The notes below the pieces were generated by a model, which saw nothing but the letters and a program-made list of their open reading frames with translations, was not told where the DNA came from and did not search any database. A stretch of 64,000 bases of DNA from a virus: IMG/VR virus record IMGVR_UViG_3300009702_000023, positions 1 through 64,000 of that record; one strand, written 5' to 3'. Positions 3,130 to 24,760 of the stretch are shown here, piece after piece (position 1 is the stretch's first letter; the number at the start of each line of letters is the position of its first letter). Position numbers and translations under genes: made by a program.

Positions 3130-3145
3130 CATAAATATTTGTTAA
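3130..3145 (-). promoter_or_regulatory. Putative late promoter TTAACAAATATTTATG
   Basis: Exact 16-mer recurring upstream of minus-strand structural units. Confidence 0.75.
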
Positions 3146-7609: not shown

Positions 7610-8836
7610 TTAGTTAGAAATTCCTGAAATCAATGTATTCTTTCCGGGTGCATAACAGAACAATGCTTGATCGGTGTAGGATCTAAGCTCATATCCTGCG
7701 CTATTTTCTAGCTCACGGAAAAACTCACTTCCTTGTCCAGGTCTTTTGAAGGTGATATCGGTAGAACCGATTCGGAGCCATTCATCAAGACACATAACAT
7801 AAGAATATCCTTCTTTTACATAAATGGAAGGAACAATTTCAACCTTACCATTTTGAGCAAAGAAAGTGATCTCTTGCGCACCATTTTCTGTAACAGAGGA
7901 ACGATAAGAACTATCGTACTGTCGTAGAGCAGATTGCTCGGTCAAAAGATCAGCCCAAGAGCGAGGATTAACGAGAACCATAACATCACTGTCAAGGCCT
8001 TTTTCAACTGCGCGAGCTACAGCCTCTTGCATTGCTGCAAAAGATAGAGCGCCAGCAGGAGAAATTACATATGAATTACCTTTGAAAAGATCATATGTTC
8101 CAGCATTAATTCCGAAAATTGAACCAGTGTTAGTCAAAATTTTGTGAACACCAGCGAAATCATTTCCGTATTGACCTTTGTGCCAGATAATATCTGTAGC
8201 AACTACTCCAGCAGGAATAGAATCAACAGTAATTGTTCTAGCAGTCATGTCAACGGAGCTAATACTAGCAAAACCACGAGAAGTGGCACCAGTAGCATCA
8301 CGAATTTCAATAGGCATGTTGTTAGCACCAGCCCAAATACCGGGCGCCCACTCAGCAGTGGTAATAGTAATAACCGCACCAGATGTGGATGCAACTTTAG
8401 CTAAACCTTCTTGGCCATACAACATAACCATTTCAAGTTTTTTAGCCATTGAACGAAGCATGTTTGATACAAGAAACTTCGTGGAATCTTCAAATGCCTT
8501 TTGACCACCACCAGCAGCACGAGCCGCAGCAGCATATCCAAGCACAGAGCGAAGAACCATTTGACTACCGCGAACTTGCGCGTCACGGATCAAACCAGAA
8601 ACGGGTGCCTGAAGATTAAATGCATCATCAGTAGGACCAGCAAAGGTCACGCCGTGTTCGTGGCCGAGAATGACTGGTTGGTGATACAAATTACCAAGTT
8701 GTCGATCACGACTAGAGAAACTTATTTTATTTACGAGCTTAACGCCTTCAGGAATAAGGTTTTCGATATTATCTGCATAAACTTCCTTAAAGTTGGCGTT
8801 TAGCGTGTCAGAAAAATTATTAGAACTTGAAGCCAT
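7610..8836 (-). CDS. Major capsid protein
   Basis: 408 aa; downstream of scaffold; strong GGAGGT RBS and terminator; higher-GC codon usage; N-terminal L...FKEVY pattern seen in podovirus-like coat proteins. Confidence 0.8.
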   Translation of the reverse strand: MASSSNNFSDTLNANFKEVYADNIENLIPEGVKLVNKISFSSRDRQLGNLYHQPVILGHEHGVTFAGPTDDAFNLQAPVSGLIRDAQVRGSQMVLRSVLGYAAAARAAGGGQKAFEDSTKFLVSNMLRSMAKKLEMVMLYGQEGLAKVASTSGAVITITTAEWAPGIWAGANNMPIEIRDATGATSRGFASISSVDMTARTITVDSIPAGVVATDIIWHKGQYGNDFAGVHKILTNTGSIFGINAGTYDLFKGNSYVISPAGALSFAAMQEAVARAVEKGLDSDVMVLVNPRSWADLLTEQSALRQYDSSYRSSVTENGAQEITFFAQNGKVEIVPSIYVKEGYSYVMCLDEWLRIGSTDITFKRPGQGSEFFRELENSAGYELRSYTDQALFCYAPGKNTLISGISN

Positions 8837-8853: not shown

Positions 8854-9312
8854 TTACGCTTCCAAATATTCAACTTCGATTCTAAAAGTGGGACTTTCGC
8901 TCGCCAAATTCAATCCAGTAGCTGCAACTTCTATTGCAATGTTACCGGCTGAAGTTAATTGGCTTGCTCCACTATTAGGGCCAGTTACGACCTCTGAAGT
9001 TGAAACAGATGAAACTTCGGTTAATGTTACGCTATAAATCTTAGTTGCTTTATTATCGCCAAGATCTAATAGCAGCCCAAATACTGAATCGCCCGTGCTA
9101 TTATCAGCAGCAGCCGTCCAGGTCAATGCTTCTACGGCATCAGCAGCCGCAGTTTTGCCTTCTGTTCTCAAAACCATAAGTCCAGGAACATCCTCAGAAT
9201 GCACCTTACTAGCGGGAGTAGCATTACCTGTAATAGTAAACTCAGCTACCAACCTTTGTTGTCGCAACAAATGGTCTTGATGGGAAGATAGGCTTTTAAA
9301 TTCAATAGACAT
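8854..9312 (-). CDS. Capsid-associated (decoration/cement-like) protein
   Basis: Between scaffold and MCP; ATG 9312 after GGAGG; Ala/Thr/Ser-rich. Confidence 0.5.
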   Translation of the reverse strand: MSIEFKSLSSHQDHLLRQQRLVAEFTITGNATPASKVHSEDVPGLMVLRTEGKTAAADAVEALTWTAAADNSTGDSVFGLLLDLGDNKATKIYSVTLTEVSSVSTSEVVTGPNSGASQLTSAGNIAIEVAATGLNLASESPTFRIEVEYLEA

Positions 9313-9474
9313 TTCTACCTCCAAAGAGTTAATAATAAATAGTTAAATGTATTAACTTGTCACTGCAAATTTATAATTTACCTTTTTTTATCACTAACTC
9401 AAGGGTATCATCTGGGCTTTTTACAGTTACCAGGGAGTCAAGAGTAACGGACAAAACGGGGTTATAAACCGCTT
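9313..9474 (-). promoter_or_regulatory. Long structured 5' leader of the capsid operon
   Basis: ~160-nt non-coding leader with nested complementary segments TTGTC/GACAA, TGACTC/GAGTTA, CTGG/CCAG. Confidence 0.5.
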
Positions 9475-9516: not shown

Positions 9517-10479
9517 TTAAAAACTTCCTAAATTTTTGAAAAAGTCTTTGGCTGACATTTTTTCTTTAGGTTTATTTTCAGCATTTGCATTAGCTTGTTT
9601 TAATTCTGATGTACCAGTTGATTGAACTTTTGGTTGAGTCGGAACTTGTTTTGCTCTACTAACCCTTCTTTTACGAAGTTTGTTTAATACATCTTTTCCG
9701 ACAACAGCCTCGACTAATTCTTCCGGCATAGCAGAGAACATATCTTTAATTTCACTACGAATGTCGTTTTCAACAACGGGGAGGATATCATTGACTGAAA
9801 TATCATCATATCCGTTATTCATGGCCAAAAGTAGGGCATCTGCAATTCTTTTAACAACATACGGGCTTTTTGGGAGCGTTTGAGCATTATCTAATGCATC
9901 TGAAATATCATTTTCTATTTGAACCGCATATTGATCTTGCATACGTTGAATTTCGGCACTACGAGCTTCTTCTTGCTCTTTTTCTCGCTCATTCTTAAGT
10001 TTTTCAATTTCTCTTTGAAGATTTTCTCGTTCCAATTGTTCGGGGGATTTTTGCATTTCTTCAATTCGGCGTTGAATATGCTGTTCGGCAAGTGCATCAA
10101 CGTCAAACCCCATTTGGTCTAAAGCTGATCCGGGATCTTGTTGCAGGGCATGGAAAAATGATTCCATTTCTTTGCGCATTCTTGAGGCTTCTTGCCACTT
10201 TTCATCAGCAGAATATCCCATTTGAGCACGTTTAATAAGCTCATCTTCATCATCAATTTCAATTTCTTTTCCACCAACTTTAAGTTTCCACGCTTTTCTT
10301 TCGGGCTCTTCAACTAATTCTTCGGTTTCTTCACCTTCGGCGGGGACTTCTTCACCGGAATCTTCGCCATTTAAACCCAGGCTATTTAGTACTTCATCAG
10401 CGGGGTTTACTGGCGTTTCTTGAGCTTGTTCGGTTGATTCAGGGGCGATTTGTGATGTTTCGGCTGCTACATCAGACAT
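9517..10479 (-). CDS. Capsid scaffolding protein
   Basis: Acidic N-terminus, WKLKVGGKEIEI...ELIKRAQMG pattern, coiled coil; located upstream of MCP. Confidence 0.8.
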   Translation of the reverse strand: MSDVAAETSQIAPESTEQAQETPVNPADEVLNSLGLNGEDSGEEVPAEGEETEELVEEPERKAWKLKVGGKEIEIDDEDELIKRAQMGYSADEKWQEASRMRKEMESFFHALQQDPGSALDQMGFDVDALAEQHIQRRIEEMQKSPEQLERENLQREIEKLKNEREKEQEEARSAEIQRMQDQYAVQIENDISDALDNAQTLPKSPYVVKRIADALLLAMNNGYDDISVNDILPVVENDIRSEIKDMFSAMPEELVEAVVGKDVLNKLRKRRVSRAKQVPTQPKVQSTGTSELKQANANAENKPKEKMSAKDFFKNLGSF

Positions 10480-10547: not shown

Positions 10548-10563
10548 CATAAATATTTGTTAA
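10548..10563 (-). promoter_or_regulatory. Putative late promoter TTAACAAATATTTATG
   Basis: Exact motif upstream of the scaffold gene. Confidence 0.75.
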
Positions 10564-10592: not shown

Positions 10593-10742
10593 CTAGAGGA
10601 ATTTGTTAATAATAAATATAACTAATAATACATTAGTTAATAAACTAAAATATAATACATATTTAGAATATTTTTTTCTACGAATATGTCTTTTTTTATA
10701 TTTTTTTGGTGCATCTTTATCTAAAAAGTATATTTTAGCCAT
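10593..10742 (-). CDS. 49-aa basic membrane microprotein (not in ORF track)
   Basis: MAKIYFLDKDAPKKYKKRHIRRKKYSKYVLYFSLLTNVLLVIFIINKFL; start overlaps the upstream stop (TAATG). Confidence 0.55.
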   Translation of the reverse strand: MAKIYFLDKDAPKKYKKRHIRRKKYSKYVLYFSLLTNVLLVIFIINKFL

Positions 10743-11374
10743 TATGTTCTCGTATATAGGTCCATATTAATATAAACTGTTACCGTATTAATTACATTTG
10801 TATTAGTATAATTAACTCTCATATATAATCCTGCCGCAGGTAATTCAACAGCGGAAATATCTTGCATTGAGATTGGGCCACTATTTGTTGTTGATTGCAT
10901 ATATGCTTTACTAACTGGTGTTCCTAAAATATAATTTACACCATTTCCTAAAACATTATCAATGTCAATTAATTGAATAGTCACATAATCACCTAAATTT
11001 ATATCACTAGATAAATATACAATCCCCCTAAATAAATAAGAATTGTTTAGTAAATAGTCGTGCGAAGACGTTGTATTTTTAGGTGCAGTAAATGAAAAAG
11101 CTTGTATTCCAATATTTAAATTATCTTCAGCTAAAGTTAGTGCTACTTGCTGTATAACTTGTTTATTATTTGTAATTAAAGATTTGTAATTAGTTTCAAA
11201 ATCAGTTTGATCAGAATTTGCTGGACTTGTTTTTTGTATAATAGTAAATGCACTAAAATTACCATCATTCATAACTAAACGATAATATGTTAATTTATCA
11301 AAATAATTTATAGTGCTTTTTCTTAAGACTAATTGATTTTTAAATTCAGACCAAGTTATATGAATCATTCCCAA
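10742..11374 (-). CDS. Virion structural protein
   Basis: In late operon; DFETNYKS motif; beta-rich C-terminus. Confidence 0.5.
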   Translation of the reverse strand: MGMIHITWSEFKNQLVLRKSTINYFDKLTYYRLVMNDGNFSAFTIIQKTSPANSDQTDFETNYKSLITNNKQVIQQVALTLAEDNLNIGIQAFSFTAPKNTTSSHDYLLNNSYLFRGIVYLSSDINLGDYVTIQLIDIDNVLGNGVNYILGTPVSKAYMQSTTNSGPISMQDISAVELPAAGLYMRVNYTNTNVINTVTVYINMDLYTRT

Positions 11375-11589
11375 TCACCACTTGTATAAATTATATTTTG
11401 AATTTCAGCCTGGGTATATAGAGAATATCCTAAAATTGAAACTTCTAAAGGAATATCATTATATGCAAATTTTAAAATAACCTTTGTTCCATCTAAACTA
11501 GTTCGTAAACTAAATGGATTATCTTGTAAAACTTTATCTAAAATAGACTGAGTTAAATCTGTTTTTATTAAAATAGTATAATATATCAT
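11365..11589 (-). CDS. Small tail-associated protein
   Basis: LRTSLDGTKVILKF...W pattern; coupled to the LamG gene. Confidence 0.5.
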   Translation of the reverse strand: MIYYTILIKTDLTQSILDKVLQDNPFSLRTSLDGTKVILKFAYNDIPLEVSILGYSLYTQAEIQNIIYTSGDWE

Positions 11590-13112
11590 GGAACATCTCC
11601 ATTGATATAATCAGTTATTTCCATATTAATTAATGTTCCATTTATTGAAGCTTTATTATCTACTTCTGTCGGAAAAGAACTGTTAGTATTTAATTTCCAC
11701 CAAGATAATAAATTGGCAGATGCACTATGAGAATTTAAATCTGCTGGACTACCGGAATTATATAATTCACTAACTTCGGCGGCACTTAATTCTTTATTCC
11801 AAACACTAATTTGGTTCATATTTCCTGAAAAATGAAAACCTGTACCTCTAGCTGCAATTGTTAATGGGTCAGTTACTGTCCAGGCATTTAAAGACTGACT
11901 AGATGGGGCCGATTCAACTGCGCCATTTATGTACGCTTTAAGCCCATTCATATTTGACCCGCCAGCATAAGTAAAACAGATATGATACCAAGTTCCGGCA
12001 GTCATAACGGTGGGGTAGGTATGTGCTCTTAATGTTCCTGAAGCTCTAACTTGAGCATATAATTTACCGGCAGAAGTATGCTGAAAACTATAACCATAAA
12101 CATTAGCGTCTTGTGCCGTTTTTGCTATAAAACATCTTTGAGATGCAAAATTGTTTGCTTTAAACCAAAAAGACCAACTAAAGGCTGTGGCCGGGCCAAA
12201 AGTATAATTATCCCCAACATTAATATATTCATCTACCCCATCAAATAATAAACTAGCTGGATTTGAAAGAACTGGCGTTGGAAAAAGACTTTCTCTATCA
12301 TCCCAAATTTGATCATATTGGCCATTATTAGCATATTCCGTAGTGACTGTATTACTCTGGGTTAATTGTCTTTGAATTTGCCAACTAGCATTACTTGTTA
12401 GTGCTGCGGTATTAAATGATTTTCCTATATATGTTATTTGTGAATTTTTTACTTCAGAAATTATTTTTGCAATTGATTCGTCATTAATATGCTCAATACC
12501 TTCTATAATAGATAATTGAGATTGAACTCTACCATTCACACTCCCATCAGCAGTACCGGCAGTACTAGTTCGAAATCTAATAGATTTTAATCCAATAATA
12601 GAACCAATTACATCTTGGGTTGTAGAAACTGAACTTGTAAATATTGAACTTTCAAGTGATCTAAATAAAATAGAAAACCAATTGGTTCCATCAAATGTCC
12701 CTTCAAAAGTTATAATACCACCAGTTGGCGGAACAACACGACATCCTATATGACTATAGCCAATAGTATTTATATATGTATAACTTGAATTTAAAGTTTG
12801 ACTAAGTGTACTTGAAAAATCCTCATACTTTTGTGTATTTGTAATAGTGTCTTGTAAATAAGATAAATCTCTAATATCTAAATTCGGAGTAATAATATTT
12901 ACATCTAAACCATGATCGGCACCAACAGTTGTTCCGGTAAATAAAGTTGTCCCATCACCAATTGCAATAGTGTCCGCTGTTTGATCTAATATAACTTCAA
13001 CCTGGCCTATTTGGGCTGATATCTGAGCATCAACTCTTATTCTATTTCCCGCAGGATCATAAATACTACGCAGTACTTGCTGACCATCAATTGTTTTTAA
13101 ATTATTTGCCAT
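11586..13112 (-). CDS. Tail/head fibre protein with LamG (concanavalin-like) domain
   Basis: SLLFDGVDEY, FSWSFWFK, GTWYHICFTY, YINGA, FSGNMNQISVWNKELSAAEV. Confidence 0.8.
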   Translation of the reverse strand: MANNLKTIDGQQVLRSIYDPAGNRIRVDAQISAQIGQVEVILDQTADTIAIGDGTTLFTGTTVGADHGLDVNIITPNLDIRDLSYLQDTITNTQKYEDFSSTLSQTLNSSYTYINTIGYSHIGCRVVPPTGGIITFEGTFDGTNWFSILFRSLESSIFTSSVSTTQDVIGSIIGLKSIRFRTSTAGTADGSVNGRVQSQLSIIEGIEHINDESIAKIISEVKNSQITYIGKSFNTAALTSNASWQIQRQLTQSNTVTTEYANNGQYDQIWDDRESLFPTPVLSNPASLLFDGVDEYINVGDNYTFGPATAFSWSFWFKANNFASQRCFIAKTAQDANVYGYSFQHTSAGKLYAQVRASGTLRAHTYPTVMTAGTWYHICFTYAGGSNMNGLKAYINGAVESAPSSQSLNAWTVTDPLTIAARGTGFHFSGNMNQISVWNKELSAAEVSELYNSGSPADLNSHSASANLLSWWKLNTNSSFPTEVDNKASINGTLINMEITDYINGDVP

Positions 13113-13230
13113 ACTTCTTCAACTTATCTTTGAGTTTTTTAAATTTAATTGTTTTTCGTTTATTTGATTTAGGATATTGTTCTTTAAAATTTGGTTTTAA
13201 TGAAGTAAAGGTATTAGCACTATTTGCCAT
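13102..13230 (-). CDS. 42-aa microprotein: capsid-like N-terminus plus Lys-rich tail (not in ORF track)
   Basis: MANSANTFTSLKPNFKEQYPKSNKRKTIKFKKLKDKLKKYGK; GGGGA RBS; fills the gap between flanking genes. Confidence 0.7.
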   Translation of the reverse strand: MANSANTFTSLKPNFKEQYPKSNKRKTIKFKKLKDKLKKYGK

Positions 13231-13235
13231 TTGTA

Positions 13236-13766
13236 TTATTCCCCAAATAATTTCTTTTTAAACCTATTGTATTTTTTTACATAATCTGAGTTTTGATAAT
13301 CTCGTTGTTCAACTTCTTTTGGTTCCAAATTATGCCCATATTTCCAACTATAAGCAGCCTCTTGTTCATTCGGAAATTCAGTTAAAACTTTATCGGCTAA
13401 TCTTTGCGCAAACTCGCCTTCAACTTGAGGATTTGCCTCGATTTGTTGCTTCATTTTATCAGCAGGAAGTTGACTAATATCAAATGCTTTATTAGATAAT
13501 GGATAACCCGAATTAGCTGCGCTATGTTCAATTTCTCTAATAGTATTCGGCATTAAACCATATTGTCCCGCAGCAGTTGTTCCGGATTGTATTCCTTGGG
13601 TAATTGGCCTATGGTTAAAATTTGTTCCGCCGGATGATTCAATTTGACTAATGATTTTTAAAAAATTATCAACAGCTTTTTGACTTTCATAATCTTCTTT
13701 TTCTCTACGTTGTTGATCCATTCGTTGAGCTAAAGCTAATGCTTTTTTTAAATCATTATTAGGCAT
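13236..13766 (-). CDS. Lytic transglycosylase / lysozyme-like virion protein
   Basis: IISQIESSGG (catalytic E), AAGQYGLMPNT, AAYSWKYG, YVKK. Confidence 0.75.
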   Translation of the reverse strand: MPNNDLKKALALAQRMDQQRREKEDYESQKAVDNFLKIISQIESSGGTNFNHRPITQGIQSGTTAAGQYGLMPNTIREIEHSAANSGYPLSNKAFDISQLPADKMKQQIEANPQVEGEFAQRLADKVLTEFPNEQEAAYSWKYGHNLEPKEVEQRDYQNSDYVKKYNRFKKKLFGE

Positions 13767-13769
13767 ACT

Positions 13770-15836
13770 TTATCCTTCGGTTGGCACTTCAGCCGGATTA
13801 GTTGGTAGATTTTGAAATGGTGCTGGCGGTTTAGCCGGTTCTGGTAAATTAGCTGGAGCTACATTCGGTGTAGGGGGCATTGCTGTCGGAGCTTGCGGCG
13901 GTCCCGATGGCATTTGACTTTGGTTAGGTTGCATTTGTGGCACATTTCCCGGAGCAACTGGTGAGCCGCCTTGTGGCCCTAATGGTTTTTCTCCCATCAT
14001 TGCTAATATATCTGGATCAGTTGTGCGCAGCAAATCAATGTGTTGTTGAATATGATTAGCAACTCGTTGGACCAAATCGGGGTCTTTCTTTAAATCTGCA
14101 TCAGATAAAATATATTTATGTTCTTTAATATGCAATGAATGTTGTTCAGTAAATACTGCGGGAATATCTTCACCTTCAATTAATTTTTCATTTTCAGATT
14201 TAATTAAAAGCAATTCAGATTGTGGGTTTTCTGTTAAGAAATCTAATTCCCCGGTGTTAATTACATTGAAATATTGTTCGGGTTCTGTTATTACGCCCAT
14301 TTGAATCATATCTTTGGCCATTTCAACTCGGCCCGCTGTTGTCCTCGCGAGAGCATTCCCCATATCAACAATAACTCTATTAATTTTATTTAAATCTTCG
14401 CCAGTAAATTCTTTCATTAATGTTCTATGTTTTTTACCACTAATCATTGCAATTCTGGGGACAGATGCAAATTTTTGCAGCATTTTTATCAGCCCGGTTC
14501 CAACATCTTCAATTAATTCAACATAAGATTGCTGTAAACCTGACATATATTGAATTGACATACTTTGTACTAATGCCAAAGCTGTTCCAGTTTTTAAACT
14601 TGACTCCGGATTGCCACGAGAAACAGAACTAATACCAGAGATAGTTTCCATTACTCGTTCTAACATTCCTAAATATTCAAAAACTTCTCTAGGAGTTGCT
14701 GTTAAATTTAATGCTTCTGGTTTTCCCATTTGAGCATTATACTCAATTAAATTTAGACCACCGACTAAGGTAGACGGGTTAATATCAGTTCCGCGTGGCA
14801 TTAAAATATTTTGAACACCGAAGGCATTTTGGTTACTTAAAATTGTGCTATACAATGAATTAACTGCATCTTGAATTGGGAGTAAATCAAGCATAGGAGT
14901 ATAACCATAAGGTGTGCCTAAAATATTTGATGGGGCAATACGATAAATTGGAAGCTCATCATACGGCATTACTGTGTCCATTAAAATAATATCTTTAGCT
15001 AGAAATAAAAGATATCGTCCATCGGGCATAGATTCAGTTGATCTATGAAATAATTCATATACCGGAATATCGTCAGTTTCGACATAACCTAAACTATTAA
15101 ATCTAAAACGATAGTATTCTTCCTTGGTATCCATTTTGATAATTTCATCTTCAAGTTCAGGATATTTTGCTGCTAGATCAAATTTATTTTTAAATGAACG
15201 GGTAACAATCCAATCATGAGTATCAGTATCTTCTTTTGTACTATCAACAACAACATCAAATGGTGAAAGATTTGAGAAAACAACATCGCCTTCAAAAATT
15301 GGATATCCTTCTTCTACTACATTACCTTGTGCGTCATGTTCGGGCTCAATTGTATCATACAATGGTCCCGCCATGGCATTCCATTCCATTTTAATATAAC
15401 CAGCACCCAAAACGACAGCATATTCTACCGCAGTTTGAAGATATTTTTCCAGCTTTTTCTCTCGCATATAATAATCGAGTAATCCATTAGCGAGAATTGT
15501 TTGGGATTGTGATTTGTAATCAGTATTAACTGCTCTAGCCTCAAATGTTGGTCGCGTTGCTGTAACCATAACCAACATATGTTGTGCTATATTACGAAAA
15601 TGATTAATCGGCAAATTGGCCAGTTCGCCTTGCTCACCACCAAATGTAATTTTATGCCCATCATTAAATCCGGCATAATATATTCCGTGATATGCTGCCC
15701 ACATTTCCCGAAGTTTATCTAAATATCCATTAGAATCTAAATTATTAAACCAGTTTCCGGCTTTTTCTAATAATATACCGGCAGTTTCTTCTGGATCTCT
15801 ATTTGCGAAATATTTGTCACCATGATGATTTGCCAT
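13770..15836 (-). CDS. Portal protein (P22-like)
   Basis: 688 aa directly downstream of TerL; G.GYIKMEW, LSPFDVVVD, ISGISSVSRG; Pro/Gln-rich tail. Confidence 0.85.
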   Translation of the reverse strand: MANHHGDKYFANRDPEETAGILLEKAGNWFNNLDSNGYLDKLREMWAAYHGIYYAGFNDGHKITFGGEQGELANLPINHFRNIAQHMLVMVTATRPTFEARAVNTDYKSQSQTILANGLLDYYMREKKLEKYLQTAVEYAVVLGAGYIKMEWNAMAGPLYDTIEPEHDAQGNVVEEGYPIFEGDVVFSNLSPFDVVVDSTKEDTDTHDWIVTRSFKNKFDLAAKYPELEDEIIKMDTKEEYYRFRFNSLGYVETDDIPVYELFHRSTESMPDGRYLLFLAKDIILMDTVMPYDELPIYRIAPSNILGTPYGYTPMLDLLPIQDAVNSLYSTILSNQNAFGVQNILMPRGTDINPSTLVGGLNLIEYNAQMGKPEALNLTATPREVFEYLGMLERVMETISGISSVSRGNPESSLKTGTALALVQSMSIQYMSGLQQSYVELIEDVGTGLIKMLQKFASVPRIAMISGKKHRTLMKEFTGEDLNKINRVIVDMGNALARTTAGRVEMAKDMIQMGVITEPEQYFNVINTGELDFLTENPQSELLLIKSENEKLIEGEDIPAVFTEQHSLHIKEHKYILSDADLKKDPDLVQRVANHIQQHIDLLRTTDPDILAMMGEKPLGPQGGSPVAPGNVPQMQPNQSQMPSGPPQAPTAMPPTPNVAPANLPEPAKPPAPFQNLPTNPAEVPTEG

Positions 15837-15844
15837 TTACACCT

Positions 15845-15860
15845 CATAAATATTTGTTAA
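15845..15860 (-). promoter_or_regulatory. Putative late promoter TTAACAAATATTTATG
   Basis: Exact motif abutting the GAGGT RBS of the portal gene. Confidence 0.75.
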
Positions 15861-15869
15861 TTCAAACAT

Positions 15870-18518
15870 TTAATGCTTTTTTAAACTTGATCGGGGTTTA
15901 AATATATTAATAAATGCCTCATATTCTTTATTTTTCTCGGCATTAGTTTTAATAAATAAATCTTTATTTTCGCCTAAACCATATCCAGGGGGGTATGGAT
16001 TTTTAGATTCTTGAACATTTCGTATAAAATATGTAATTGCATCGCAATTATGAACGGCAATATCATTAACGGTATAACTATTGTCTTCTTCAACTTCCAG
16101 ATTATATACTTTTCCCGTATATAAACTCTCACTTTTTGTTAATTTTTTAAAATTCGATGGGTAATTATACTTATTTTTCGAAATTATATCATGTATTAAC
16201 TTATCTTCAAATATATAAGCTAAATCTTCATTTTTATTAATGTTTGTTATTAGATCTATGGCTTGTTGCTTATCTAAGTGCCAAATATATTGATCTTTTG
16301 CCGAAGGAGAAGATTTCCATCTTCCTTCCCGCTTTTGAAATGTAATATTACCCACTAATCCTAATTTTCTAGATAATATATCAACCCCATGTATAATTTC
16401 TTTACTAATGCTATTACCGATTATTCCGGTTTTAGAAAAATAACCATCGCCAAATAAATAACCAAGTAACATATACATAGATTGTTCTTTATTCAAATCA
16501 TATATAAATGGGGGAAAATGTTTTTGGGTACTAGTGCCTAATTTTTTCAACTCTGATCTAAGTTCGGATTGTGTAACACATATAATTCTACCATTATCAC
16601 TGTCTTTTTTATAATATCGGGCCTTCGTGCTTCGAGGTTTACACTCTCCATTTTTATGTCGGTTAATAGATCGCCTAGATACGCCACGTTTACCTTTTCC
16701 ATATGTATTATGTACTGCCTTTTCTAATATACCTAAAACATTTTTTTCTCTTTTATGACCGGCAAAAGATATTTGGTGCCCATTCCCACCAACAGATCCT
16801 TCGGCAACATAATATCCGTATAAAAAACATAATTCTTTTGTAATATTAATATTTCCTTCTTCAATAAAAGGAATATAAGCTTTATGATTTTCAAAATTTA
16901 ATTCAGCAGCGGGACTCCAGTTAGTGCCAGTAATTATTTTTTGACCAGTAAAACCTTCTTTTCTATTTTTTTCAACATTGCCAACATATAACCGATGATT
17001 AGGTGTACATTGCATCAACTCTCTTCCCGGAACTTTTATGTCACAAATTTCCCCAGAATAATCTCTATTCATAGTATTTGTAACTTTTTTAAATCTACCT
17101 TGGTGAGTTAATACTTGATCTCCGATAACAATATCTTCTATTTTTTTATACCCAGCATTGGTTAAAACTTTTTGGCCAGGCAAAAAACAGGCATCGTAAT
17201 GTCCTGAAGGAATAAAAATTGTATTATTTTCTTCATCATATAAAGTTACAGCGGGAGATTTAACATATTTCTTTCGATTTTTATCCCATGTAGCATTTTT
17301 TAAATGATGTATTAAAACTTTGCATCTGGGGTGTATTATAATTTTTTCTGATGCAATCCTCATCCTGAGATTGTTTAATGCAGCGTCTTTATTATCTTTT
17401 GCTGTAGGAATAAATAATAAATTATGTTTATAATTTAAATCATTCAATAAAATTAAGTTATTATTATCAGATACTCTTAAATATGGCTCTTTATATTCTC
17501 CCGATGCCGGGTTAGAATATACTTTCTGTTCTTTTTTCTTAATTTCCTTAGCTAATACATCTGTACGTAATGCTTGACCTTTAATATAAAATTCATCCTC
17601 AATAACGGTAACGGCATTTTTAAAATCATAATATCCAAACAAAACCACTGTTAAATCATCAAATCCTATGTCCATTGACACATAGGCGTCATAAAATGGG
17701 GGTCTTGGCCAGGCTTTTATACATTTTTCTTGAATAGCTGTTGTAAATTCGGGAATTACGGCTTTTTCAGAGTCAATAATAATTTCACAAAGGTATTCTC
17801 GGCGGAAATCATCATCTTTTTCTTTTAAAGGGTAACGATTAATGATTTTTTGTCTTTTTTCGGGAGTCATCATGGGATTATCAAATAACGTGTACTTAAT
17901 TAACTCCCCCGTCAACTCGTTTGGTTGAACAAACTCCGTTATAAATTCATGATCGGGCTTAGGTGATGGTGTAGAAGCTAAAATGCCCCGACCGCCGGTA
18001 GTATCCGCCGTTGGAGCAAGGACAGAATTAACAATATCCTTCAATTCATCGCAAAAACCTGCCTCATCGACAATCCATAGATCGGATTTACCTCCGCGAA
18101 GTGATTGGTAGTGGCCATTATCTGTTCCTGCTATCTGAATTTGACTTCCATTAGGAAAAAGGTACATTTTGGCATTAGTTTTATATTCTGGGCGCAATTC
18201 CGGGGGGCAATCTTTAAAAATATCTTGCATAATCGGTTTAATAATCTTTTGCACCATGTCTTGCTTAGGACAAACATATTTAACAATAGAATCTGGTTTT
18301 TTGAGACACTGTTCAACAGATAATACACATAATAAATAACTTTTGCCCAATCTTCGGGCACAAGTAATAACCGTTATTTCTTTATTGAAATCATTAATAG
18401 AGTTATACATGCGTTTTTGAACTTCATGTAATTTCCAATGAATAACCCCTCGTCGCCAAAGAGTAAATAATGCCTCTTTAGGTGTTGGTTTTTTTATTTC
18501 CATTAGCAGATCCCGCAA
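15870..18518 (-). CDS. terL: Terminase large subunit with intein
   Basis: CARRLGKS Walker A, LRGG, WIVDEAG Walker B, ASTP, MDIG nuclease motif; true start may be a few codons downstream. Confidence 0.92.
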   Translation of the reverse strand: MRDLLMEIKKPTPKEALFTLWRRGVIHWKLHEVQKRMYNSINDFNKEITVITCARRLGKSYLLCVLSVEQCLKKPDSIVKYVCPKQDMVQKIIKPIMQDIFKDCPPELRPEYKTNAKMYLFPNGSQIQIAGTDNGHYQSLRGGKSDLWIVDEAGFCDELKDIVNSVLAPTADTTGGRGILASTPSPKPDHEFITEFVQPNELTGELIKYTLFDNPMMTPEKRQKIINRYPLKEKDDDFRREYLCEIIIDSEKAVIPEFTTAIQEKCIKAWPRPPFYDAYVSMDIGFDDLTVVLFGYYDFKNAVTVIEDEFYIKGQALRTDVLAKEIKKKEQKVYSNPASGEYKEPYLRVSDNNNLILLNDLNYKHNLLFIPTAKDNKDAALNNLRMRIASEKIIIHPRCKVLIHHLKNATWDKNRKKYVKSPAVTLYDEENNTIFIPSGHYDACFLPGQKVLTNAGYKKIEDIVIGDQVLTHQGRFKKVTNTMNRDYSGEICDIKVPGRELMQCTPNHRLYVGNVEKNRKEGFTGQKIITGTNWSPAAELNFENHKAYIPFIEEGNINITKELCFLYGYYVAEGSVGGNGHQISFAGHKREKNVLGILEKAVHNTYGKGKRGVSRRSINRHKNGECKPRSTKARYYKKDSDNGRIICVTQSELRSELKKLGTSTQKHFPPFIYDLNKEQSMYMLLGYLFGDGYFSKTGIIGNSISKEIIHGVDILSRKLGLVGNITFQKREGRWKSSPSAKDQYIWHLDKQQAIDLITNINKNEDLAYIFEDKLIHDIISKNKYNYPSNFKKLTKSESLYTGKVYNLEVEEDNSYTVNDIAVHNCDAITYFIRNVQESKNPYPPGYGLGENKDLFIKTNAEKNKEYEAFINIFKPRSSLKKH
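16047..17189 (-). mobile_element. Intein (381 aa) with LAGLIDADG endonuclease
   Basis: CFLPGQKV start, VYNLEV...IAVHN|C end; FLYGYYVAEGS and LLGYLFGDGY blocks. Confidence 0.93.
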
Positions 18519-19375: not shown

Positions 19376-19391
19376 CATAAATATTTGTTAA
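19376..19391 (-). promoter_or_regulatory. Putative late promoter TTAACAAATATTTATG
   Basis: Exact motif upstream of the terminase operon. Confidence 0.75.
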
Positions 19392-24744: not shown

Positions 24745-24760
24745 CATAAATATTTGTTAA
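24745..24760 (-). promoter_or_regulatory. Putative late promoter TTAACAAATATTTATG
   Basis: Exact motif. Confidence 0.75.

Follow-up and report, generated by a model that had tools for sequence, protein, structure and literature searches.

The N-terminal arm of HK97-fold major capsid proteins (MCPs) is a hub to which scaffolding proteins bind. In P22 the C-terminus of the scaffold binds the coat protein N-arm (PMC9965877), and in 80alpha a C-terminal helix or hook of the scaffold binds the N-arm helix (PMC5644958). When P22 matures, its N-arm turns from a helix into a loop and enters the subunit next to it (PMC9965877). The arm is the one segment of the HK97 fold that switches partners in assembly, from the scaffold to a neighboring subunit, and it is this segment that is copied by the conserved part of the small-protein family described here. 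The family is represented by a 42-residue microprotein encoded in the window (the whole stretch of viral DNA analyzed, 64,000 nucleotides, positions 1 to 64,000 of IMG/VR record IMGVR_UViG_3300009702_000023). CpmB of SaPI1 is a small protein that hijacks the scaffold/N-arm contact by mimicry (PMC5644958); however, CpmB mimics the scaffold side of the contact, whereas the microprotein copies the MCP side. The microprotein is not a capsid protein in its own right, as it matches only the first 22-24 residues of a fold that otherwise comprises the P-domain, A-domain, spine helix and E-loop, and its 42 residues are predicted to be mostly disordered. Nor is it a scaffolding protein of the long helical kind with a C-terminal coat-binding tip, the likeness of its tail to basic C-terminal motifs being loose and non-significant.

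Small proteins of the phage head escape both gene callers and cryo-EM averaging, and catalogues of them are poor as a result. Among known structures, the nearest parallel to a protein that fills an arm socket and also contacts DNA is the portal-vertex protein (PVP) of P74-26. This accessory protein makes up for the contacts that are missing where a penton has given way to the portal; its N-arm joins an MCP beta-sheet in the capsid interior and its Lys2 lies in the DNA minor groove (PMC12407722). Compared by description, PVP differs in having an outer globular domain and no stated likeness to an MCP arm (PMC12407722), and a portal-vertex site for the window protein would be conjecture.

In T4, IPI-III and other proteins with a capsid targeting sequence carry a signal that attaches to the scaffolding core and that gp21 cleaves off (PMC3012670, PMC9958956). 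Like the window family, for which we propose head loading below, IPI-III place a short conserved N-terminal peptide before a variable and often basic cargo. The T4 targeting peptide is about 10 residues long, and the prohead protease cuts after Glu in an L/I-x-E context. No T4-type targeting peptide or cut-site motif was found in an alignment of 125 members of the window family, and the conserved N-terminal module of the family (the N-module, residues 1-22), unlike the IPI-III signal, matches the N-terminus of the MCP itself from Met1. Furthermore, the T4 prohead protease processes both core and shell, whereas the window has a separate 320-aa scaffold gene and no prohead protease family was recognized among its ten head-region proteins (Pfam, PHROG).

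A second T4 protein, gp61.1 (54 aa, annotated as hypothetical), offers a parallel in design. It aligns with residues 57-93 of gp23 at 46% identity over 37 residues (E 1e-9), and its C-terminus is a short K/E-rich tail; we found no literature on its function. Like the window family, gp61.1 is a small late protein in which a segment of its own MCP's arm is joined to a lysine-rich tail, in an unrelated phage lineage and with no sequence relationship to the window family. It begins with a leader that we take to be similar to the T4 capsid targeting sequence. Since the site at which gp23 is cut on maturation falls within the match, the T4 copy corresponds to the arm exposed after proteolysis; the window family has no leader or cut site and starts at Met1. 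The tails differ as well, that of gp61.1 being mixed K/E and those of the window family strongly basic, sometimes with four cysteines. Given the lack of sequence kinship, of a leader or cut site and of a recognizable protease, together with the Met1 start and the separate scaffold, the window family appears to be a second, independent instance of the gp61.1 design; judged from these alignments, what the two have in common is the two-part design and not descent. Because gp61.1 shares the design, the idea is testable in a model phage although the window phage is uncultured.

The microprotein gene and its surroundings

The features of the head module discussed below are all on the minus strand.

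15870-18518, minus: large terminase, 882 aa, with an intein (Pfam Terminase_6N, Hint_2, Intein_splicing, LAGLIDADG_3)
15845-15860 and 10548-10563, minus: core of a late-promoter-like 17-mer, TTAACAAATATTTATGA, before the portal gene and before the scaffold gene (sites read out and compared)
13770-15836, minus: portal protein, first gene of the probable transcription unit (PHROG 156, Pfam SU10_portal)
13236-13766, minus: conserved 176-aa protein directly upstream of the microprotein (alignment of 74 homologues)
13240-13244, minus: GGGGA, a weak Shine-Dalgarno-like motif that belongs to the end of the upstream gene (direct sequence reading)
13102-13230, minus: microprotein gene, 42 codons plus stop, ATG start (ORF list and translation, homologue family, purifying selection)
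13165-13230, minus: N-module, residues 1-22, copy of the MCP N-terminal arm (pairwise score against shuffles, hhalign)
13105-13164, minus: basic tail, residues 23-42, with a [KR]-F-x-[KR]-[LI]-K motif (charge statistics, AlphaFold2)
11586-13112, minus: 508-aa LamG-domain fiber-like protein (Pfam Laminin_G_3, 1.1e-21)
9517-10479, minus: putative scaffolding protein, 320 aa (position and composition, homologues in at least 20 loci)
8854-9324, minus: 156-aa protein
7610-8836, minus: MCP, HK97 fold (PHROG 14242, model pLDDT 84.5, Foldseek)
8765-8836, minus: MCP N-terminal arm, residues 1-24, the copied segment (alignment, AlphaFold2 model)

The microprotein ATG follows the stop codon of the preceding gene after a gap of 5 nt, and the 3' end of the ORF overlaps the ATG of the downstream LamG gene by 11 nt, an arrangement that makes translational coupling with the adjoining genes likely. 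The first-pass annotation had credited the gene with a ribosome-binding site and a place in the portal operon. A motif is indeed present 10 nt upstream of the ATG, but it is a weak one and lies within the end of the preceding gene. The operon assignment is plausible: exact minus-strand copies of the 17-mer at 15845-15860, 10548-10563, 3130-3145, 19376-19391 and 24745-24760 stand upstream of virion and packaging units, none of the seven sites read out falls between the copies before the portal and scaffold genes, and in that interval the minus strand has no terminator-like site, so that the microprotein gene is probably part of the portal transcription unit. The promoter role of the 17-mer in this argument is putative. 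A search of Rfam with positions 12800-13500 gave no match, GenBank phages had no DNA match to positions 11000-16000, and among the sequencing runs listed a full match came from one subsurface metagenome and from no RNA run.

The two proteins that matter most for the arm are encoded downstream. Foldseek matched the MCP model best to 7z45 of SU10 (E 3.6e-9), the closest solved structure, and AlphaFold2 places an arm helix at residues 8-20 (pLDDT ~85), with the extreme N-terminus predicted to be disordered. The scaffold has no library match (Pfam, PHROG), and its function is assigned from position and composition; it has an acidic N-terminus and a basic C-terminal tail ending KDFFKNLGSF, and its homologues in at least 20 loci keep the C-terminal tip [YA]K[DK]FF. 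We consider it a candidate partner of the MCP N-arm.

The other neighbors are of some interest in themselves. The 176-aa family has the invariant motifs QIESSGG, G.YGLMPNT and GHN, in that order, across 74 homologues, and no Pfam, PHROG or PDB sequence match. These motifs recall lytic transglycosylases and SU10 is known to eject a transglycosylase (PMC9509320); a possible function for the 176-aa protein is therefore that of an ejected cell-wall enzyme. Several different fiber-like genes (L001, L008, L029, L035 in our set of related loci) begin with a version of the ~75 N-terminal residues of the LamG protein (MANNLK..D..QVLRS..D), which in some loci occurs twice and looks like a shared attachment domain. 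Three small genes lie between the LamG and scaffold genes. A 49-aa protein at 10593-10742 (minus) combines a basic N-terminus with a single hydrophobic helix, and L005, L010, L029 and L048 have counterparts of it in their head modules. The intein in the large terminase carries a LAGLIDADG endonuclease.

The arm copy and its family

Residues 1-19 of the microprotein align to residues 1-20 of the window MCP with 11 identities and one gap, which is the alignment that the first-pass annotation had reported. The Smith-Waterman score is 48-50, against 24.1 +/- 3.7 for shuffles compared with the whole MCP (0 of 5000 reach it) and 15.6 +/- 3.7 for shuffles compared with the N-terminus only (0 of 20000). 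When all 908 Met-started frames of at least 20 aa in the six frames of the window were compared, the microprotein was the best non-self match to the MCP N-terminus, with a score of 50 against 30 for the next. Only 7 codons are identical among the 11 identical residues, the other four shared residues being encoded differently, and the first, second and third codon positions agree at 12, 17 and 10 of 20; the likeness thus holds at the level of protein and not of DNA, synonymous sites having diverged. The sequences upstream of the two genes are unrelated.

A profile search of 1.84 billion representative proteins returned 127 clusters at E <= 1e-3, almost all of 30-72 aa and matched from residue 1 or close to it. 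The protein had been called unannotated and it is so: neither the window protein nor its family could be assigned to Pfam or PHROG, and among 28 family members there was no consistent PHROG match. By the extent of these matches and the selection described below, the family is large, undescribed and selected. Its N-module has the uncharged motif M-x-x-x-[AS]-N-T-[FY]-x-[ST]-L-[KQ]-P-x-x-K-E-x-Y, in which N6, K16 and Y19 are nearly invariant across the 125-sequence alignment, and is the most conserved part of the family. The first-pass annotation had allowed that the ORF might prove not to be conserved or translated. In addition to the 127 clusters, we found that the close homologues in L088, L096 and L102 differ at 11-12 synonymous as opposed to 2-3 non-synonymous codons out of 41, which argues for translation; judged by these counts, the ORF is a genuine gene under purifying selection.

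The carriers of the family are uncultured phages of 70-90 kb with an SU10-like capsid protein and portal. With the 176-aa neighbor and the MCP as queries we collected 110 related loci (IMG/VR, JGI contigs), 79 of which include at least 6 kb upstream of the MCP; clear family members were identified by profile in 32 of the 79, and in the remaining 47 the gene is absent or unrecognizable. The microprotein would therefore be an accessory part rather than a core assembly part, heads being able to form without it. Where present, the gene always lies between portal and scaffold, often directly upstream of the scaffold, and in about 18 of 27 loci it is at most three genes upstream of the order scaffold, decoration, MCP. 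A scan of viral contigs with the 176-aa protein alone found nothing, and contig scans with the microprotein alignment confirmed 1 and 2 loci, tblastn being weak on such short proteins. The microprotein had no tblastn match among GenBank phages; the only relative of the MCP there is that of a Silvanigrella phage (28% identity), which has no arm copy in the 25 kb that surround its MCP gene. We found no cultured phage with the family, no usable match in the ESM Atlas and, in a search of weak sensitivity, no protein of 127-2000 aa that carries the N-module.

The MCPs of the group share the N-terminus M-A-x-A-N-T-F-G-T-P-N-N-T-V-G-T-L-N-G-[LF]-F-K-E-x-Y-A-D-K, of which the window type is a shorter version. 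Across all microprotein-MCP pairs from 25 genomes the mean score was 37.3, compared with 16.8 +/- 3.9 for shuffled arms, and when the microprotein profile was run against the loci the next-best matches after the family members were mostly MCP N-termini. The first-pass annotation had named loss of the MCP likeness in related phages as an outcome that would speak against it; instead the likeness is retained family-wide, with hhalign of the family against MCP N-termini giving 96.2% (E 2e-9, 23 columns) and of larger, independent profiles (125 library proteins and 54 full-length MCPs) giving 90.6% (E 1.3e-6, MCP columns 3-32). On the strength of these profile alignments, N-module and MCP N-terminus are homologous when the family is taken as a whole, and the constraint is on the protein.

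It had also been suggested that the small proteins co-vary with their cognate MCPs. Overall the effect is weak: cognate pairs scored 39.1 and non-cognate pairs 37.3 (permutation p ~0.02 over 25 loci, with kinship uncorrected), the N-module usually resembles the family consensus (ANTF..SLKP) more than it does its own MCP, and most copies retain ANTF..SLKP even where the cognate MCP has lost it. Position-by-position inspection by eye, for example of the x in KE-x-Y, revealed no pattern of co-variation. In one lineage (L084-L086), on the other hand, the correspondence is striking. Here the MCP starts MAEYGGANNMATLNG and the small protein starts MADYPGSNSEATMEG before continuing into the RF.KL.K tail of the family. 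The L085 copy matches the unusual N-terminus of its own MCP with a score of 68 (z 9.8 among the small ORFs of the locus), and the pair is identical at 13 of 26 residues, with 5 identical codons and a third-position identity of 8/26. As residues are shared but few codons are, we take this to reflect parallel evolution at the protein level and not a recent duplication.

The remainder of the protein is, as had been noted, a Lys-rich tail: residues 20-42 of the window microprotein contain 12 K+R in 23 residues (net charge +11), and family tails have a mean net charge of +8.4, usually with the [KR]-F-x-[KR]-[LI]-K motif. Four cysteines in the arrangement CxC...CxC are found in 23 of 125 members, and other variants are a 'KATAE...KGVAF' module, encoded as an ORF of its own in L019 and L105, and a 156-aa form. 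Interchangeable tails behind a conserved N-module are what would be expected of a peptide that targets or anchors a cargo. AlphaFold2, run on the 125-sequence alignment, predicts an amphipathic, basic helix at residues 31-41 (block pLDDT 87) and disorder elsewhere, typical of a peptide that folds on binding. The copy spans only the first two turns of the predicted MCP arm helix and has a conserved proline, so the N-module need not take the structure of the MCP arm. A prediction of the MCP-microprotein complex, run without controls, scored 0.00 and 0.00 against a mark of 0.32, and these values count neither for nor against an interaction.

Related tails occur elsewhere in the head modules. A 64-aa protein in L072 (7549-7743) consists of the 'GLWDNIRANKGSGKKPTK' small protein, a separate 53-aa ORF in L028, joined to a Cys-rich CxC...CxC tail without the N-arm module; tails thus appear to move between small head-module genes. 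The basic motif [KR]-F-x-[KR]-[LI]-[KR]-x-x-L is found again in the 176-aa protein and several other small head-module ORFs, at the C-terminus or close to it (window 13236-13766, minus; L029:2582-2700; L003:9816-9986; L056:7954; L040:20168), and one ORF of L029 has the basic motif together with a copy of the scaffold C-terminal tip KDFFKGLG. This recurring motif could be a shared head-incorporation signal; hhalign did pair the tail motif with the C-terminal end of the 176-aa protein, at a level that is not significant (probability 0.5%, E 0.11).

A proposed role and its rivals

We favor the possibility, to which we would give a probability of roughly 0.45, that a free copy of the arm with a DNA-friendly tail docks at an arm site and is thereby carried into, or fixed inside, the head. 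The N-module would be the docking peptide and would occupy the site that normally receives the MCP arm, which in the procapsid might be the C-terminal hook of the scaffold, as in related HK97-fold phages, and after maturation a groove or sheet on a neighboring capsid subunit. The variable tail (about +8, an amphipathic helix, sometimes four Cys) would then be the payload, facing and binding packaged DNA. The protein might be present in modest copy number on the inner face of the head, possibly in the sockets emptied where the portal replaces a penton. The first-pass annotation had read the protein as a capsid-arm mimic, and the parts of that reading that can be judged from sequence stand: the gene is real, and the homology to the MCP arm, the position in the head module and the basic tail are all as described. 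We think it unlikely that the idea extends as far as a general class of phage head protein, in which free arm copies that have arisen more than once (the window family in phages with SU10-like capsids, gp61.1 in T4-like phages) fill arm sockets at the portal-replaced penton and tether DNA by a charged tail as a patch for the symmetry-mismatched vertex. If the copy does dock at an arm site, it would be a natural peptide handle for loading cargo into capsids and a probe of the contact between scaffold and arm, and it might explain how the portal vertex is stabilized and DNA anchored there.

The homology and selection evidence would serve equally well for an assembly competitor or holdase, in which the arm copy blocks the scaffold hook or a neighboring MCP, so tuning shell polymerization or scaffold release, and is not a stable component of the virion. 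CpmB, which vies with the 80alpha scaffold for the N-arm site, provides precedent for this (PMC5644958), an accessory distribution suits a modulator, and co-transcription with the portal would have the protein made alongside scaffold and MCP. However, a pure competitor has no need of a conserved tail of about +8 or of a Cys4 knuckle, and would be costly if made stoichiometrically in the same late operon as the MCP; we regard this scenario as rather improbable. We are somewhat more doubtful of a shared signal for N-terminal processing or modification, recognized in both proteins by one enzyme, with the basic peptide alone as the active product. The likeness begins exactly at Met1 in both proteins and covers the part of the MCP N-terminus that is predicted to be disordered, and in the T4 analogue the match runs across the site at which gp23 is cut on maturation. 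The capsid and scaffold proteins of 80alpha have similar N-termini, and both are trimmed by the host protease Prp. Nevertheless, no prohead protease is recognizable in the head module, the separate scaffold gene points to assembly free of proteolysis, and the conserved block reaches into the predicted arm helix (FKE.Y), a deeply conserved structural element of MCPs.

General mimicry logic, together with the accessory distribution, could also be accommodated by an immune decoy, a copy of the MCP N-terminus that occupies a host sensor of newly made capsid protein. This we consider very improbable, as the gene lies in a structural operon beside the scaffold in most lineages and it is not apparent what a basic or Cys4 tail would do in a decoy. 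Chance similarity, a decaying duplicate of the 5' end of the MCP gene and an RNA-level element are refuted by the shuffle tests, by the 127 clusters in which the N-module is most conserved, by purifying selection and by the diverged synonymous sites, and stand further against the unlike upstream regions and the lack of an Rfam match. A frameshift fusion to the downstream 508-aa gene was also rejected: it would require a shift of +1, and other lineages have a different gene downstream.

One feature of the relatives could lead to errors in identifying the family. In many of them insertions of 0.5-1.3 kb interrupt the MCP gene behind codons 23-63 (L010:9936-12313, L016:5362-8011, L019:13588-15944, L029:15499-17575 and L094-L106), and the short first exon resembles the N-module and could be mistaken for a microprotein. 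We rejected the possibility that the window microprotein is itself an orphan first exon of this kind, since the window MCP is intact and the microprotein has a conserved tail and ends in a stop codon. The insertions are probably introns, and the one in the L029 MCP gene encodes an HNH/NUMOD3 homing endonuclease.
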